Assembly (NCBI GenBank): GCA_963845565.1
Contig: CAWJSJ010000004.1
Location: 64,001-128,000 of the forward strand
Reading direction: 5' to 3'
Source: an uncultured Methylomirabilota bacterium
GTDB taxonomy: Bacteria; Methylomirabilota; Methylomirabilia; Methylomirabilales; 2-02-FULL-66-22
Length of the DNA stretch: 64,000 nt
The position numbers and the translations under genes were made by a program. Shown piece after piece: positions 10,884-29,195 of the stretch. Position 1 is the stretch's first letter. Every line of letters begins with the position of its first letter. The notes below the pieces were generated by a model. It had not been told where the DNA came from. It saw only the letters and a program-made list of their open reading frames with translations, and did no database searches.

Positions 10884-12490
10884 CCGGTAGTACCGCTGGG
10901 AGGGTCGGGACAACACAACCCGATCCGAGGGAAGGGGCCGTCACTCTCACCACGCTTCCTAACGGCGGGCACGCGAGGAGGATTGCCGTGAGGCTCGAAC
11001 CTCCGGAGGCAGTGCGCGACCCTCCAGCGGAAGCTCTACCGCAAGGCCAAGTCGGAGCCCACCTTCCGGTTCTACCTCCTCTACGACAAGGTGCACCGGG
11101 CGGACGTCCTGCGTCACGCCTGGGCCTTGGTGCGGGCGAACGGGGGCGCCCCGGGGTGGACGGGGTCACGATCGCGGCCGTGGAGGCGGACGGGGTCGAC
11201 CGTTCCTCGCGCGTCTGGCCGAGGAACTCCGGACGCACACCTACCGGCCCGATCCCGTCCGGCGTGTGTCCATCCCCAAGCGGAGTGGGGGCGAGCGGCC
11301 CGCTCGGCATCCCGACGGTGCGGGACCGGGTGGTCCAGAGCCGCGGCCCGCCTGGTGCTTGGAGCCGATCTTCGAGGCGGACTTCCAGCCGTGCTCCTAC
11401 GGCTTCCGCCCGAAGAAAGAGCGCGCACCAGGCCGTGGAGGAGATCCGCGCCCACCTCGCCGCGGGGCTACACGCAGGTGCTCGACGCCGACCTGACGGC
11501 CTACTTCGACTCGATCCCCCATGACCGGCTGCTGGCGGCGGTGGCCCGCGCGTGACGCAGACCGGCACATCGCTGCGGCTGCTGACCGACAGTGGCTGCG
11601 CGCGCCCGGTGGTGGTCGAGCGGGACGGACGGGAAGCGGGAGGTCGCGGGGCGGCACAGCGGACGCGTCGCGGGACTCCGCAGGGTGGGGTGATCTCCCC
11701 GCTGCTCGCGAACCGTCTACCTGCACGCCTTCGACACGGCATGGCGAGCAGGCGGGCTGGAGCGACGCTGGCAGGCCCGGCTCATCCGGTACGCGGATGA
11801 CTTCGTGATCTGCTGTCGGGCGCAGGCGGCGCCAGGTGCAAGCGGTCGTTACTGAGCAACTCCAGGCGCTCGGGTTGACGCTGAATGCAGCGAAGACCGA
11901 GTCCTGGACGCGCGGCAGCAGGCCTTCACCTTCCTCGGGTTCACGGTGCGGGTCGCACGGAGCCGACGGACCGGGCGGACGTTCCCCCTGATCCAGCCCC
12001 TCGGCCGCCGCCCGCCAGCGACTGCGGGATCACGGTGAAGGCGCTCACCGGTCGTGACGCATCTGGCGCTGCCGACGCCGACGGTCATCACGGCGGTCAA
12101 TCGCGTGGTCCGCGGATGGGCCGGGTATTTCCACTTTCAGCACTGCACGCGCGACCTTCAGCGCGCTCCGGTGGTTCGTCAGCGAGCGGGTCCGGATCGT
12201 ACCTGCGGCGCAAGCACCGGCTCCGGACGCGAGCCTACCAGGCCTTCCCGTAGACTGTGCTGTACGGGCGGCTGGGGCTCTACCGGTTGCCGATGCGGGC
12301 GCCGTGGCCTGCTCCGGCGTCTGCCGGGCGGTGAAGGTGATCGGAGAGCCGGATGCGGGCAAACCGCACGTCCGGTTCGATGAGGGGGTGCTGGCGTCCG
12401 GGCACGGTCGGGCTCGTGAGGCACCGCCAGACGAAAGGGGCGGGAACAGATAGGCCCGACCTACCTTCAGATTCCCAGGCTCTACTCTAC
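10884..12490 (+). mobile_element. ltrA: Group II intron, 5'-truncated, RT/maturase ORF heavily frameshifted
   Basis: RT blocks [54 protein letters not shown] in shifting frames; domain V GAGCCGGATGCGGGCAAACCGCACGTCCGGTTC near 12346; 3' end CTCTACTCTAC. Confidence 0.92.
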
Positions 12491-23266: not shown

Positions 23267-24010
23267 ATGAAGATCAAGGTCATCAATCCGAACACGACGC
23301 AGAGCATGACCGAGAAGATCGGTGCGGCGGCCCGGGCGGTGGCGGCGCTGGGGACCACGATTCTTGCCGCGAGTCCCTCGATGGGTCCGGTGTCCATCGA
23401 GGGCCATTACGACGAAGCGGTAAGCGTGCTCGGCGTGCTGGACGAGGTGCGGCGGGGCGAGGCGGAGGGCTGCGACGGGTACGTCATCGCCTGCTTCGGG
23501 GACCCCGGGCTCCTGGCGGCGCGCGAGATCGCGCGCGGTCCCGTCCTGGGCATCGCCGAGGCCGCCATGCACGCGGCCAGTATGGTGGCAACCGGCTTCT
23601 CCATCGTCACGACGCTGGCACGGACCGTCGGGATCGCCCGCCATCTTGTCGAGGCCTACGGGATGTCCCGCCACTGCCGGGGCATCCGGGCGACGGACCT
23701 TGCCGTATTGGACCTCGAGCGGCCGGACTCCTCGGCGTCCGCGGCCATCCTCGAGGAATGCCGCCGCGCCGTGCGCGAGGATCGCGCCGATGCCATCGTC
23801 CTGGGCTGCGCGGGGATGGCCGACCTGGCGAAACGGATCGGAGACGAACTCCGGCTTCCGGTGGTGGACGGGGTGACGGCCGCGGTCAAGCTGGTCGAGG
23901 CGCTGGTGGCGCTCGGCCTTCGGACGAGCAAGGCGGGGGAGCTGGCTTTCCCGCTGCCGAAGGTCTATACCGGCCTGGTCGAGCCGTTCGCGCCGGACGC
24001 AGGCTGCTGA
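23267..24010 (+). CDS. Allantoin/hydantoin racemase (Asp/Glu racemase family, HpxA-like)
   Basis: INPNTTQSMT, SIEGHYDE, IACFGDPG, LGCAGM, TSK. Confidence 0.9.
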   Translation: MKIKVINPNTTQSMTEKIGAAARAVAALGTTILAASPSMGPVSIEGHYDEAVSVLGVLDEVRRGEAEGCDGYVIACFGDPGLLAAREIARGPVLGIAEAAMHAASMVATGFSIVTTLARTVGIARHLVEAYGMSRHCRGIRATDLAVLDLERPDSSASAAILEECRRAVREDRADAIVLGCAGMADLAKRIGDELRLPVVDGVTAAVKLVEALVALGLRTSKAGELAFPLPKVYTGLVEPFAPDAGC

Positions 24011-24164
24011 AAAAGGCCCATCTGCGGGGACCCATCCTCCGGACGGGTACCCCGCGCGCTCGCGCGCTCGCTGCGGCGTACCTGGAGTACGCCTCGCTCG
24101 GCCCCCGGGTGCCCATCCGTAGGATGGGTGGTGCCGCCTAGCAGCCGGACCTTTTTGAGCAGCC
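24002..24164 (+). mobile_element. MITE-like repeat family A, copy 5; supplies the racemase stop codon
   Basis: GGCTGCTGAAAAAGG...CCTTTTTGAGCAGCC. Confidence 0.85.
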
Positions 24165-24239
24165 CGAGCGAGAGCGTGGTCTTCGGAATCTAGCTCGCCT
24201 CGCCGCCCCGCAAGATGTACGTCTGTGTCGGTGCGTGCC

Positions 24240-24269: not shown

Positions 24270-24490
24270 TCCAGCCATCGTACCTCTCCCTCATTACCAG
24301 CGGAGGCGGCTCCATGGGGTCGGCCAGAAACGGCGCTCCGGACCCGAAGCGTGCCAGCGGTTTGGCCCGTCCACCGTGGCCACTCCGGGTGCATTCCCGC
24401 CCCACCTGGCGTCCGTCCTCTCAGCCAGCAATCCAAACCCCTCGACCGCCATCCCACCGAGTTGGCCGGACCGGCGATCAACGCCTGTCT

Positions 24491-24616
24491 GCGGTACGAG
24501 AACTCCCGGGCCATCACGACGTCACCGCCACGATGATCTATTCGCATATCCTCAATCGTGGACCGGCGGGTGTCCGTAGCCCGTTAGGCCGTGACCGAAT
24601 CTATTCACACCCGTAA
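24491..24616 (+). pseudogene. intI: C-terminal remnant of an integron integrase
   Basis: [31 protein letters not shown] matches the IntI box II/C-terminus (ELLGHxDVxTTMIYTHVLNRG..GVRSPL). Confidence 0.85.
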
Positions 24617-24630
24617 GGAACTTTGCCACA

Positions 24631-25377
24631 ATGGACATCCCACGGATCTTCAACATCACCGAAAGTGCTCACCGCATCCATAACCCGATCACACCCGAAA
24701 AACTCGCCACCCTCGGCACGGCGCTGCGTCTGGCACCGGGGGCCCGAGTGCTCGACCTCGGCAGCGGTTCGGGGGAGATGCTGTGCACCTGGGCACGCGA
24801 TCACGGCGTCAGCGGCACCGGCATCGACATGAGCCAGTTGTTCACCGAGCAAGCGAGACGCCGTGCTGTAGAACTCGGCGTCGCCGATCAAGTCAAGTTC
24901 ATCCATGGCGATGCGGCCGGCTATGTCTCTGATGAGAAGGCCAGTGTGGCCGCCTGTGTCGGTGCCACGTGGATCGCCGGGGGAGTCGCCGGCACGATCG
25001 AGCTTCTGGCGCGCAGCCTGCGCACCGGAGGGATCATCCTCATCGGCGAGCCCTACTGGCGGCAGTTACCGCCGACGGAAGATGTGGCCAAGGGGTGTCT
25101 TGGCAACTCCATCTCCGACTTTCTCAGGCTTCCAGAACTTCTCGCGACTTTCGGCCACCTCGGCTACGACGTCGTGGAAATGGTTTTGGCAGACCAAGAC
25201 AGCTGGGACAGATACGAGGCGGCCAAGTGGCTCACCATGCGCCGATGGCTTGAAGCCAATCCCGACGACGAGTTCGCGAAAGATGTTCGAGCCCAACTGA
25301 CCTCGGAACCCGAGCGCTACGCCGCGTACACGCGTGAGTACCTGGGCTGGGGTGTGTTCGCGCTGATGCCGCGGTGA
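24631..25377 (+). CDS. Class I SAM methyltransferase, YjhP-like (cassette 1)
   Basis: MDIPRIF..ES.HRIHNP, VLDLGSGSGE, WDRYEAAKWLTMRRWL. Confidence 0.88.
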   Translation: MDIPRIFNITESAHRIHNPITPEKLATLGTALRLAPGARVLDLGSGSGEMLCTWARDHGVSGTGIDMSQLFTEQARRRAVELGVADQVKFIHGDAAGYVSDEKASVAACVGATWIAGGVAGTIELLARSLRTGGIILIGEPYWRQLPPTEDVAKGCLGNSISDFLRLPELLATFGHLGYDVVEMVLADQDSWDRYEAAKWLTMRRWLEANPDDEFAKDVRAQLTSEPERYAAYTREYLGWGVFALMPR

Positions 25378-25513
25378 TGCGTTGGGGCATCCGGGGATTG
25401 TCAACGGCTGTGCCGCGCAACAGCTGGTGGCTCGCCGAGATGTGATTGCGCCTGAATTCATTTCTTACGGTCTCGTTGTCCGTGCAATCAACAGAAAGGC
25501 CTGTCACAGGCAG

Positions 25514-25573
25514 GCCTAACAACCGGTTGCAGCGGACGACGCTCCGCGCCGCCGGTAAACCGGAGCGTTGCGC
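25514..25573 (+). repeat. attC site of the methyltransferase cassette
   Basis: GCCTAAC-AACCGGTTGCAGCG...AACCGGAGC-GTTGCGC. Confidence 0.8.
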
Positions 25574-25717
25574 GGGCTTGGCACGCAGGTGGCTTGGGCG
25601 CGCCGGCCCGCTGGTCGACACTCGGGTGGTGACCGAATATCTGGCGGCCCCCGCGCCCGTGCAACGGGGCCGCGGCTTGCCAGCCGCCCTCGGGCGTCGC
25701 GTCTTGCGCCGCCCAAC
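25567..25717 (+). repeat. 151-bp ORF-less cassette, copy 1
   Basis: Direct repeat of 26480-26630; starts at GTT, ends at GCCCAAC. Confidence 0.8.
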
Positions 25718-25763
25718 CGCGGGCCCCGTTAGCACCATCGCATGAAAAGACGGAGGACCAGGA

Positions 25764-26423
25764 ATGAACTCATTCGAGCGGCTCGTTCGCGCGGTCGTCA
25801 TCCAGACGCTCCGTGACACCGGGTTCGCTCCTTCGGCCGCGCAGATCGCCGCCACATTGAGCGCCTCTGAACCGGACATCTCTTCGGCACTGCACTCCCT
25901 ATCTGAGAGGCACAGGCTTGCGCTTCTGCCAGGAACCGACAAGGTGTGGATGGCGCATCCGTTCTCCGGCGTGGAAACCGACTTCGCCGTCTCCATCGGT
26001 AAGCGTCGATGGTTCGCCAACTGCGTGTGGGACGGTCTGTCGATACTCGCGCTGCTCGGTGACGGAAACCTCTACACCCACTCGCCGGCCACAGGCGAGC
26101 CGATCCAGCTTACGGTGTCCGCCCGCAAAGTTCTCGGCGAAGCGCTGGTCCACTTTCTGGTGCCAGCCCGGCGTTTCTGGGACGACATCGGATTTACCTG
26201 AGCGAACATCACCGCCTTCCGGTCGGAAGGTGAGTTGGATGCGTGGCTTAGGTCCCGCGGCTACCCCAAGGGAGCGATCGTCGTTCCCCAGATCCTATAT
26301 AATCTCGGTGCTGACTGGTACGCCACCCGCCTTGAGGTTGATTGGAAACCGGCGAGCGCAGAGGAGGCTACGGTCCTGTTCGCGAAGCACGGGCTGGTCG
26401 GCGGTTTCTGGTCGTTAATCTAG
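25764..26423 (+). CDS. MerB-like organomercurial lyase with in-frame UGA (probable selenocysteine, codon 146)
   Basis: MAHPFS, ANCVWD (CxxD); TGA 26199-26201 followed in frame by ANITAFRSEGELDAW...WY.TRL..DW...GFW; SECIS-like hairpin downstream. Confidence 0.8.
26202..26235 (+). promoter_or_regulatory. Putative bacterial SECIS element
   Basis: GCCTTCC-GGTC-GGAAGGT stem-loop; G-starting loop about 20 nt after the UGA. Confidence 0.7.
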
Positions 26424-26429
26424 TAAAGG

Positions 26430-26486
26430 TGCTAACCCCCCACTTCAGCCGACGCGAAACCCGCGCGGCTGATTTCGGCGTGGCGC
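26430..26486 (+). repeat. attC site of the MerB-like cassette
   Basis: TGCTAAC...TTCAGCCG.CGCG-AAACC-CGCGCGGCTGA...GTGGCGC. Confidence 0.75.
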
Positions 26487-26630
26487 GGGCTCGGCACGCA
26501 GGTGGCTTGGGCACGCCGGCCCGCTGGTCGACACTCGGGTGGTGACCGAATTTCTGGCGGCCCCCGCGCCCGTGCAACGGAGCCGCGGCTTGCCAGCCGC
26601 CCTCGGGCGTCGTGTGCCGCGCCGCCCAAC
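26480..26630 (+). repeat. 151-bp ORF-less cassette, copy 2
   Basis: About 9 substitutions and no indels relative to copy 1. Confidence 0.8.
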
Positions 26631-26719
26631 CGTGCCGGCAGCCAACATCCCTCCGCTGTGCTCCGGGGCTTCGCCCCGCCGCCCGCGGCGGGGTGCGGCT
26701 GAGCCGTCGCCCCGTTCGA
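26624..26719 (+). repeat. attC site of ORF-less cassette copy 2
   Basis: GCCCAAC...GGCAGCC...GGCTGAGCC...GTTCGAC. Confidence 0.65.
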
Positions 26720-26726
26720 CGCAGCT

Positions 26727-27476
26727 ATGATTTTGAAATCAATAGCGACATCGATGCTTTTGGTGGCCCTTATCCTTTTCGGGACGGTCGGATGTTCATC
26801 GATTGAAAGGGCGTTGCTCTTCCATCCTACTCATCGGCCTGATAATAACAGTCTGACGCCATGGACCAAAAACGGCGAAACCATCGGCTATTCGCGAAAG
26901 ATCGAATCGCCCAAGAACATATGGCTGATGCTTCACGGAAACGCTGGTCAGGCATCTGACCGCTTGTACGCAGTGCCAAGTTTTTCTGATGAAGATTCGG
27001 TTTTTATTCTTGAATATCCAGGATACGGGAGTCGTGAAGGTGTTCCATCGAAAGAGGCTTTTTATCGGGCGGCCAAAGAAGCCTACCTCCTTCTTAGGGA
27101 GACTTACCCTCACACTCCGGTATGTGTGGCCGGGGAATCGATTGGAACGGGCCCTGCCTCATCCCTTTCAAGCCTCAGCCAGCCACCCGACAAGTTGGTA
27201 CTCATCGTTCCTTTCGATAAACTTTCTTTGGTAGCCAAAGATCAATTCCCATCCTTTCTTGTTGATCTGATCCTGAAGGACGACTGGGACAACGTAGAGG
27301 CGCTTTCAAATCACAAAGGCCCAGTCCATATTTTCGGTGCTGAAGCAGACACAATTATCCCCGTGGGGCGCGCAAAGGCTCTTGCTGCCGTTATTCCCAG
27401 GGCGAAAATGGAGATCATTGGCGGTGGCCATAATGATTGGTCTTATCAGGGACGAGTGACAATAAGGAATCCGTGA
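26727..27476 (+). CDS. Alpha/beta hydrolase, probable lipoprotein (cassette)
   Basis: Lipobox TVGC, HGNAG, EYPGYG, GESIG, GGHND; visibly lower GC than host genes. Confidence 0.87.
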   Translation: MILKSIATSMLLVALILFGTVGCSSIERALLFHPTHRPDNNSLTPWTKNGETIGYSRKIESPKNIWLMLHGNAGQASDRLYAVPSFSDEDSVFILEYPGYGSREGVPSKEAFYRAAKEAYLLLRETYPHTPVCVAGESIGTGPASSLSSLSQPPDKLVLIVPFDKLSLVAKDQFPSFLVDLILKDDWDNVEALSNHKGPVHIFGAEADTIIPVGRAKALAAVIPRAKMEIIGGGHNDWSYQGRVTIRNP

Positions 27477-28399: not shown

Positions 28400-28550
28400 A
28401 CCAGTGAGTCAGGCATTCTCGCTGACCGTCACGCTTGCATCTCGTCCTTGCGAAATAGTGCAAGAGGACAAGGCGAAGGAGTAGGCGGGCGGCAAGCGCG
28501 CCGGCAGCCAAACGCGCCGTCCGGCAAACATGGTCGCCGCAGTTCCTCTG

Positions 28551-28579
28551 TTGACTCGCGTCACGTGACGCGTTACACT
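28551..28579 (+). promoter_or_regulatory. higBA promoter with palindromic operator
   Basis: TTGACT-17-TACACT; spacer contains the perfect 16-bp palindrome CGCGTCACGTGACGCG. Confidence 0.8.
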
Positions 28580-28585
28580 CCCCTC

Positions 28586-28867
28586 ATGATCAAGACGTTC
28601 GCGGACAAGCGCACGAAGGATCTCTACGACACCGGTCGGGCCAAACGCTTCCCGCCGGATGTGGCAGGTCGCGCAGCCCGCACGCTCGAGTATGTGGACC
28701 TCGCGACCCAGATCGACGACCTGAAGGTTCCACCCGGGAATCGGTTCCACGCACTGGAAGTCGACGGTAAAGGCCAGTACTCGATATCCATCAACGACCA
28801 GTGGCGTATCTGCTTCCGGTTCGTCGACGGGGACGCCTACGACGTCGGGGTCTGTGACTACCACTGA
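28586..28867 (+). CDS. higB: HigB/RelE-family toxin
   Basis: MIKTFADK, DLKVPPGNRFHAL, GQYSISINDQWRICF, DYH. Confidence 0.92.
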   Translation: MIKTFADKRTKDLYDTGRAKRFPPDVAGRAARTLEYVDLATQIDDLKVPPGNRFHALEVDGKGQYSISINDQWRICFRFVDGDAYDVGVCDYH

Positions 28868-28880
28868 GACGAGGTGTGAG

Positions 28881-29195
28881 ATGAGCATCGCCAACACAGG
28901 ACCCATGAAGCGCCGTCCCACCCATCCGGGCGAGATGCTGCGCGAGGACTTCCTCCCGGACTACGGCCTGACCGTGTCCGGGCTCGCTAACGCCATCGGT
29001 GTGTCGCGCCAGTCGGTCAACGACCTACTGCGCGGGCGTCGTGCCGTGAGTCCGGAGATGGCACTGCGCCTCGGCAAGCTGTTTGGGAACTCGCCGGAGT
29101 TCTGGCTCAACGCCCAGCGCGCCGTCGACCTATGGGACGCGGCCCAGGCGATCAAGGACAACGTCGCCGGCATCAAGACGCTGAGTGTCGCCTGA
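28881..29195 (+). CDS. higA: HigA antitoxin (HTH)
   Basis: PTHPGEMLREDFL, SPEMALRL, SPEFWLNAQ. Confidence 0.92.
   Translation: MSIANTGPMKRRPTHPGEMLREDFLPDYGLTVSGLANAIGVSRQSVNDLLRGRRAVSPEMALRLGKLFGNSPEFWLNAQRAVDLWDAAQAIKDNVAGIKTLSVA

Follow-up and report, generated by a model that had tools for sequence, protein, structure and literature searches.

The locus analysed here raises the question of whether a gene resembling the organomercury lyase MerB, interrupted by an in-frame TGA and lying between complementary recombination cores, encodes a selenoenzyme that was carried as an integron cassette. The gene lies in the window, which is the whole stretch of 64,000 nucleotides that was analysed, and which comes from an uncultured Methylomirabilota bacterium, referred to below as the host. 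Our preferred reading, to which we give a probability of about 0.6, is that of an intact MerB-fold selenoenzyme gene, cassette-borne and coding for an organometal lyase.

The gene extends as one frame from the ATG at 25764 to the TAG at 26423 with a single internal TGA (Table 1). A sequence-only reading of this DNA had described two open reading frames, 25764-26201 (145 aa) and 26235-26423, that share this frame and are split by the TGA in WDDIGFT*ANITAFRSE (the asterisk stands for TGA); these coordinates were confirmed when re-checked, and re-translation gave the read-through product of 219 aa that had been predicted. The TGA was also seen in read-derived data, as a short-read contig of run X4, which was separately assembled but may have kinship with the source sample, matched 25977-26241 with 0 differences, TGA included. 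Near-identical database proteins (97-98%) likewise stop at residue 145. Together with the presence of the TGA throughout the family (see below), these matches rule out that the TGA is an assembly error.

Table 1. Features of the MerB-like gene, its cassette and the surrounding array (positions in the window)
Feature	Position	Strand	Remarks
Integron integrase 3' remnant (35 codons)	24488..24592	+	TIGR02249 positions 280-314, E 1.4e-7; fused to first cassette
First cassette, SAM-dependent methyltransferase (Pfam)	24631..25574	+	Degenerate attC at 25514-25574
Non-coding element of ~150 bp, first copy	25565..25719	+	Begins at attC R' position
Upstream recombination-site-like hairpin	25659..25735	+	GTGCAAC ... 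GTTAGCAC; unusual in that the central spacer is paired throughout
Cassette 5' end, G|TTAGCAC core	25728..25735	+	GTTAGCAC; identity with relatives starts 1 to 4 nt before it
Shine-Dalgarno-like GGAGGA	25752..25757	+	Precedes the ATG; read from the sequence
MerB-fold gene	25764..26423	+	219 aa with TGA 146 as Sec; a winged helix at the N-terminus precedes the MerB lyase domain
Codons for C87-V-W-D90	26022..26033	+	Equivalent to MerB Cys96/Asp99 by structure-sequence alignment
In-frame TGA, inferred Sec146	26199..26201	+	MerB Cys159 position by alignment to 3F2G/5C17
SECIS hairpin GCCTTCC-GGTC-GGAAGGT	26214..26231	+	7-bp stem, GGTC loop, loop G at +20; fits the consensus of PMC13188914
Cassette's own attC	26429..26486	+	R'' GTGCTAAC, L'' ACTTCAGC, 18-nt variable part, L' GCTGATT, R' GTGGCGC
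Non-coding element of ~150 bp, second copy	26478..26632	+	94% identical to first copy; supplies GTG core of attC
Alpha/beta hydrolase-like, next array gene	26727..27476	+	Pfam, below cut-off
HigB/HigA-type toxin-antitoxin pair, near array end	28448..29195	+	Pfam PF05015 and PF01381

Fold, active site and predicted chemistry

The Pfam model PF03243 matched residues 67-186 of the read-through protein, across the TGA, with 73.1 bits (gathering cut-off 27). An AlphaFold model, for which 75 aligned sequences were used and Sec was replaced by Cys, reached a pLDDT of 98, and all 11 Foldseek matches under an E of 0.001 were MerB or MerB2 (best E 5e-10 to 1e-8). An independent aligner (VIA) matched it to MerB2 with a Z of 19.1 and an rmsd of 3.2 over 186 residues; the Z values for MerB/MerB2 were 19.1 and 13.6, and the next best was 5.4. 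According to this model, the window protein has the MerB fold. Alignment to solved MerB paired C87 with Cys96, D90 with Asp99, residue 146 with Cys159 and S107 with Cys117, these being the residues named for canonical MerB in the accessible text of PMC8261052, where Ser at the Cys117 position appears as the '117alt' state. The TGA thus falls on the second catalytic Cys, where the sequence-only reading had placed Sec, and it is kept family-wide. C87 and W89 were almost invariant in the family alignment A1, and CxWD was present in 39 of the 40 genome loci scored in the TGA clade, the remaining one being a fragment without that part. The residue before the TGA was Thr in the window and in the 40 genome loci scored, and Asn or Ser in three others; a Cys-Sec dipeptide never occurred among the family loci listed. 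Many distant Cys relatives carry CxWC instead of CxWD, and in the wider family the chemistry may therefore be different.

The window protein resembles MerB (plasmid R831b; 1S6L, 3F0O, 3F2G) and MerB2 (5C17) in the fold over its whole length, in the equivalents of Cys96 and Asp99 and in the place of the second metal ligand. It differs from them in having Sec for Cys159 and Ser107 for Cys117, in an identity of 20-22%, and in a gene that stands without a mer operon and in carrier genomes that rarely have merA. Membership of the canonical MerB equivalogs was ruled out by scores far under the NCBIfam cut-offs (NF009710, 28.4 vs 193; NF033555, 20.5 vs 200), and membership of SaoL by the score of NF040728 (21.3 bits vs 140). 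SaoL is the Sec-bearing MerB relative described in the accessible part of Haft and Gwadz (bioRxiv 10.1101/2022.07.06.499078). It shares with the window protein the MerB fold, PF03243, Sec at the Cys159 position, database entries truncated at the UGA and a predicted function as a lyase. However, SaoL has a Cys-Sec dipeptide and the window protein Thr-Sec; SaoL belongs to a nine-gene SAO locus of anaerobes (52 loci), whereas the window family is without conserved neighbours and one of its branches is cassette-borne. The SAO neighbourhood was absent from the window locus, where the neighbours encode a methyltransferase and a hydrolase, and a genome-wide search of the host for SaoC, run without a positive control, gave no match.

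The sequence-only reading had held that Sec-bearing MerB-like proteins are known and that only the cassette is unusual. The first part stands, as SaoL is known; the second was too narrow, since SaoL is a separate family and the window family itself, not only its cassette, appears undescribed. SaoL stands alone under MerB in the accessible part of a 2026 inventory of 119 families (PMC13188914), and the same SaoL accession is given in that of PMC9312934. Term searches found no mention of MerB in PMC12013277 and PMC13326102, and the accessible portion of the BSepDB supplement gave 0 matches for MerB, mercury or lyase. A literature search whose range excluded most subscription papers and bioRxiv supplements found nothing on the window family; for cassette-borne selenoproteins, with subscription papers again mostly outside the range, it turned up no more than a cassette with a selenocysteine lyase and one mention without relevance. 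We regard it as well supported that the window gene represents an unrecognised family of MerB-fold selenoproteins, one branch of which is cassette-borne, its lyase function being predicted. Surveys of merB keep only sequences with Cys96, Asp99 and Cys159 (accessible text of PMC8261052 and PMC12484752); since database entries of the window family end one residue before the Cys159 site, such surveys discard it, and 61 of the 150 best representatives at 50% identity, which end exactly at the site, are lost to them.

The chemistry that we propose follows the mechanism of MerB as given in the accessible text of PMC10114901. SelB would bind the hairpin inside the coding sequence, upon which tRNA-Sec would insert Sec at codon 146, and Cys87, Asp90 and Sec146 would take the places of MerB Cys96, Asp99 and Cys159. 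By analogy with MerB, an organometal cation would be bound via the Cys87 thiolate and the Sec146 selenolate, and Asp90 would protonate the leaving carbon, so that the hydrocarbon would be released. The enzyme would work alone, without merA or conserved neighbours. With its recoding signal inside the coding sequence, the cassette would be self-contained, and full-length protein would be made only in hosts with Sec machinery. On balance, from the fold and the active-site residues, we lean towards this MerB-type chemistry, which the sequence-only reading had proposed as organometal cleavage; that methylmercury is the true substrate is a tentative proposal.

The earlier statement that no mer operon is present was borne out, as the neighbouring genes in the window include no mer genes. 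In the host genome (98.7% complete), the best MerA score was 389.7 against a cut-off of 454.45, for a protein without the C-terminal Cys pair, and no HgcA motif was found. Of 62 carrier genomes, 4 had merA; these genomes are incomplete, and at most 21 candidates were scored in each. The 118 ORFs that adjoin the gene at about 70 loci showed no conserved operon and no recurring family of mer, ars or SAO type. Fusions within the family joined the protein to GNAT, RNase H, glyoxalase, DUF3303 and LuxR domains and gave no single clue to function. MerB without MerA is said, in the title of Krout et al. (2022), to lower methylmercury resistance.

Product release is therefore the weak point of a lyase, merA being rare and no partner recurring. 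This makes a different metal a serious rival, and likewise the proposal that the protein, although a real selenoprotein, stoichiometrically traps or chaperones soft metals or metalloids (Hg, Cu, Ag, As(III), Sb(III)), or is a one-shot cleaver that keeps the metal on selenium. The CxWC motif of the Cys relatives would suit such a protein, as would the fusion of four representatives to a DNA-binding domain of LuxR type, which a sensor would have. The accessible text of PMC10114901 adds that D99S MerB binds Cu(II) and that Hg-selenium products have been described as stable end points. Nevertheless, a mere trap would not need Asp90, the proposed MerB proton donor, which is kept in the TGA clade, and we judge the trap to be rather unlikely.

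If the lyase is active, it would change the count of potential methylmercury degraders and would provide a natural test of selenium's role at a mercury-binding catalytic site; Geomonas sp. RF6, a named carrier with a closed genome, makes testing practical. Whether wetland, soil and sediment bacteria hold a large hidden pool of Sec-dependent, merA-independent organomercury lyases, spread across phyla on self-recoding cassettes, is more doubtful. Were this true, a route of methylmercury demethylation would have been missed by merB surveys and by gene callers that stop at UGA, with the mercury possibly left on selenium rather than reduced.

The cassette, its array and its relatives

The sequence-only reading placed the gene between exactly complementary cores, and GTTAGCAC (25728-25735) and GTGCTAAC (26429-26436) are indeed complementary at 8 of 8 bases. 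DNA identity with one relative (L067) spans exactly 25727-26436 and with another (L011) 25724-26436. After dereplication and the removal of 6 short loci, a complementary core pair flanked the gene at 10 of 125 loci, compared to 27 of 2440 shuffles (1.1%). Of three rules for attC, the first found no site, the window's included, and the second passed 5 of 125 loci; the relaxed third rule passed 8 of 127 loci (4 short loci dropped, the match at L045 being probably chance) against 2 of 635 shuffles, with the window's own site failing. Canonical attC sites were present in the relatives L011, L079, L081, L082, L088 and L098, and the attC stretches of L012 and L011, as cut, folded no better than shuffles. 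With the core pair, the identity that ends at the cores and the canonical attC of relatives, the cassette origin proposed earlier stands.

In one Actinomycetes genome, a complete intI is followed by 22 attC sites of the same type and then, at a distance of about 22 kb from intI, by the family gene, whose own downstream site resembles those of the array. The 18 cassette-like loci, picked by eye, had 16 distinct upstream contexts. All 25 leaves labelled cassette-like by eye sit in one 75-leaf subclade (support 0.98), so that most of the family is taken to be ordinary chromosomal DNA and the cassette habit that of one branch. At the level of sequence, these loci show that one branch became an integron cassette and repeatedly entered the arrays of unrelated bacteria. 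Among 20 genomes of the host's genus there was a single close ortholog (73%), located at another site. The plasmid collection gave 102 records, 98 of them from Ralstonia and all under 60% identity (31-34% in the 25 listed), and no close member. At L078, L079, L081 and L010, the cassette is preceded by a stretch similar to the site that lies behind intI in the host (TTATGCGGA...G|TT or TATTG|TT), and the cassette may, as judged by eye, be in first position there.

The window cassette and its relatives share with integron cassettes a single gene with a short leader, complementary cores, an attC hairpin, many different neighbours and, in relatives, a nearby intI. They differ in that the cargo of the window cassette needs host recoding machinery and that its R' core is GTG. 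AAC and GTT are the only conserved bases of attC according to the accessible text of PMC2727003; in the window, R' (26480-26486) reads GTGGCGC, with GTG in place of GTT. This change puts the site below the threshold of our home-made attC rule (5.5 vs 6.5), and the window copy may for the same reason be immobile now. The bottom strand of this attC folds into an attC-like hairpin with a z of -2.26, and that of the upstream hairpin into one with a z of -3.98, with 0 of 200 shuffles as good. The GTG core is supplied by a GC-rich non-coding element of about 150 bp, most copies of which start right at the attC R' position. Partial copies adjoin attC-like sites elsewhere in the host genome (G000 C2:1644469, 2009893, 2010962 and 2011943; C1:427526), and the element could be an empty cassette or a miniature element that targets attC.

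The intI remnant that opens the array is 79% identical over 92 nt to the host's full intI, which lies on another contig (C2:1646488-1647432, 483 bits). The host's cassettes lie behind the 3' end of intI and on its strand, which is an inverted arrangement, and two of the three host arrays (window 24488-24592 and C2:2007315-2007449) retain only the last 35-45 intI codons. The attC of the first cassette matches attC-like sites of the C2 arrays with identities of 87% and 82% and folds no better than shuffles (z -0.21). In three DNA runs, the methyltransferase cassette (24631-25377) was represented by hundreds of variant contigs with a summed depth of thousands, the depth of its neighbours being about 10. 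Contigs of 4 runs, with low depth on the MerB-like cassette, gave no excision joint or circular form. From its sequence context, the array of the window copy is probably decaying, and the copy may have lost the ability to excise by itself. The earlier description of the gene as mobile is borne out for the history of the family rather than for this copy, with its R' GTG and a 35-codon intI remnant at the array. As the SECIS is internal, a gene with special decoding can travel by site-specific recombination, and the cassette form provides a concrete route for the horizontal spread of selenoproteins.

Toxin-antitoxin pairs, such as the one near the array end, are common in cassette arrays. Elsewhere in the window, Rfam recognized a group II intron 3' domain at 12344-12470, and a palindromic repeat of about 190 bp at 24000-24190 has well over 100 partial copies genome-wide.

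Selenocysteine machinery of the host

The sequence-only reading tied the product to hosts with selA, selB, selC and selD. In the assembly, selA (578 bits), selC, in the form of a tRNA-Sec, and selD (343 bits, with its own in-frame TGA) were found intact, and selB carries three 1-base insertions. Four more TGA genes of the host have G-loop hairpins at +18 to +21, and two of them score over NCBIfam cut-offs. Likely host selenoproteins are YtxJ-like (HSPT*P; G000 C2:2390901), YeeE-like (GF*PG; C2:2494387), AhpD-like (CTS*V; G000 C1:128117) and PrxU (TFV*A; C2:2522158); YtxJ has no entry in the accessible part of the family table of PMC13188914.

The three selB insertions (G000 C4:5490-5960) fall within about 320 bp in comparison with the orthologs, which are intact (635-636 aa) in two genomes of the host's genus. 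Such a cluster is unusual, since the background, counted in 43 orthologs (from 183 query ORFs), was 3 frameshifts, and the neighbours of selB have none. It might therefore be argued that the family is recoded but the gene is silent in this host, which would make only a 145-aa fragment, either because selB is broken or because the cassette is promoterless. The array agrees with a silent gene in that only a remnant is left of intI and attI and no promoter-like site was found before the MerB-like cassette, the single one preceding the first cassette (shuffles give 0.4). However, two of the selB insertions lie in G runs, the three together restore the frame, and the remainder of selB differs from its orthologs mostly at third codon positions (92/81/252). 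Clustered indel errors do occur in the same assembly, as shown by an acsC/acsD-like region (G000 C2:493500-496300) riddled with frameshifts, and five other TGA genes of the host look intact. In addition, RNA-run contigs match two parts of the MerB-like gene, where DNA carry-over is possible. Judged from these patterns, the selB insertions are probably assembly errors, and a silent gene in this host is improbable.

Among carrier genomes, selA was found in 39 of 42 (36 over the cut-off). In the Actinomycetota sample, 20 of 22 TGA carriers possessed it, as did 6 of the 7 Cys carriers and 173 of all 251 genomes, so its co-occurrence with the TGA is weak evidence in that phylum. Three of the five selA-negative carriers had tRNA-Sec or SelB; in G018 and G025, selA, tRNA-Sec and the SelB wing were looked for and none was found.

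The TGA and its hairpin across the family

Homologs were expected to carry Cys or TGA at codon 146 with conservation on both sides, and this is what we found. Among the 120 best homologs (of 653 in the database), 118 end directly before the TGA and 2 have Trp. Of 42 genome loci, 40 have TGA at the site, one is misaligned and one does not cover it; of 80 metagenome loci, 79 have TGA and one does not cover the site. TAA or TAG was never seen there in family loci. The TGA-bearing genome loci, with identities down to 36%, belong to at least six phyla, which from record titles we take to be Acidobacteriota, Actinomycetota, Chloroflexota, Gemmatimonadota, Bacteroidota and Desulfobacterota. As the genome and metagenome searches were seeded with the window's own protein, a Cys-bearing relative was used as query in 251 Actinomycetota genomes, including four unpublished ones (G103, G150, G176 and G222) that enter only the 251-genome tallies; its 29 matches comprised 22 TGA and 7 Cys forms. 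The 150 best representatives mentioned above include, besides the 61 that end at the site, 27 with Cys, 2 with Trp and 9 with another letter, mostly motif mis-hits, and 51 that could not be scored by the site motif.

In a FastTree phylogeny of 167 sequences, which leaves out SaoL, the window gene fell in a 102-leaf clade (support 0.92) with 0 Cys members; true SaoL genes sought as an outgroup in 151 genomes gave none above the cut-off. Differences at codon positions 1/2/3 among 14 relatives were 0.20/0.13/0.44 before the TGA and 0.23/0.19/0.47 after it, a substitution pattern by which purifying selection acts on both halves.

The stem-loop GCCTTCC-GGTC-GGAAGGT was found where it had been placed, and its loop opens with a G that lies 20 nt beyond the UGA. 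Bacterial SECIS elements have a loop of 3-9 nt with G in the first two places, a stem of 4-16 bp, a distance of 16-37 nt from the UGA and an energy of -7.5 or lower (accessible text of PMC13188914), and the window hairpin agrees with this consensus in its 4-nt GGTC loop, 7-bp stem and 19-nt spacer. The 47-nt SECIS region folds with -17.9 kcal/mol, only modestly below shuffles (z -2.14), so that conservation across the family, rather than the single fold, is decisive. The loop is closed by a stem of at least 5 bp in 115 of 121 distinct TGA forms compared to 0 of 14 Cys forms. Arg+7 is encoded by CGG in 119 of 119 TGA forms, against 534 of 1630 (33%) elsewhere in the same genes, and Ser+8 by TCG in 115 of 115, against 501 of 1199 (42%). 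Pair counting on the alignment gave 94% of cells paired and 64 two-sided changes, far above all slid controls and with 0 of 500 shuffles as high, in a test that is inflated by relatedness and takes its reference structure from the window sequence. Residues +5 and +10 covary with the stem (Ala/Gly 63, Leu/Glu 18, Gly/Ala 12; n=121), as the outer stem pairs demand. By these comparative data, the hairpin is under RNA-level selection. It shares the GGTC loop and nearly the same distance with the SECIS of E. coli fdhF (+19 vs +20 in the window), whose stem is bulged, whereas that of the window is an unbroken 7-bp helix; in geometry it is closer to the host's own hairpins (peroxiredoxin, AhpD-like).

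From this pattern of conservation, we infer that tRNA-Sec almost certainly inserts Sec at codon 146 of the MerB-like protein. That the TGA is instead a true stop, leaving a truncated 145-aa protein, a split gene or a pseudogene, or is read as Trp or Cys, would fit the 145-aa database proteins (e.g., RefSeq WP_230997545.1 of Geomonas sp. RF6) and the few Trp entries among homologs and representatives, but is highly improbable, as a stop would end the MerB domain ahead of the catalytic residue, the site never holds TAA or TAG, the host tRNA has the anticodon and length of tRNA-Sec, and one Trp entry passes its C-terminal end with Trp too, which suggests a gene caller using TGA=Trp. A split gene was ruled out by in-frame start codons within 10 codons after the TGA at only 29 of 143 loci, together with equal constraint on both sides, and a TGA=Trp code by the many family genes that terminate with an ordinary TGA stop, so that TGA is not reassigned.

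Further MerB-fold genes with in-frame TGA were also observed. In the phylum of L008, the loci L181-L185 and L187 carry genes with two in-frame TGA codons, at the Cys96 and Cys159 positions (WFAQ*AFE ... PYS*STMNFFRSE; YAA*AxD ... xF*xxSVFF), which by their sequence are likely double selenoproteins. A gene nearer canonical MerB (YAWCAVD) at L180:1852-1896 has TGA at the Cys159 site and a hairpin, GCTC-GGTC-GAGC, that lies four bases further out than in the window family, and possibly represents an independent gain of Sec.
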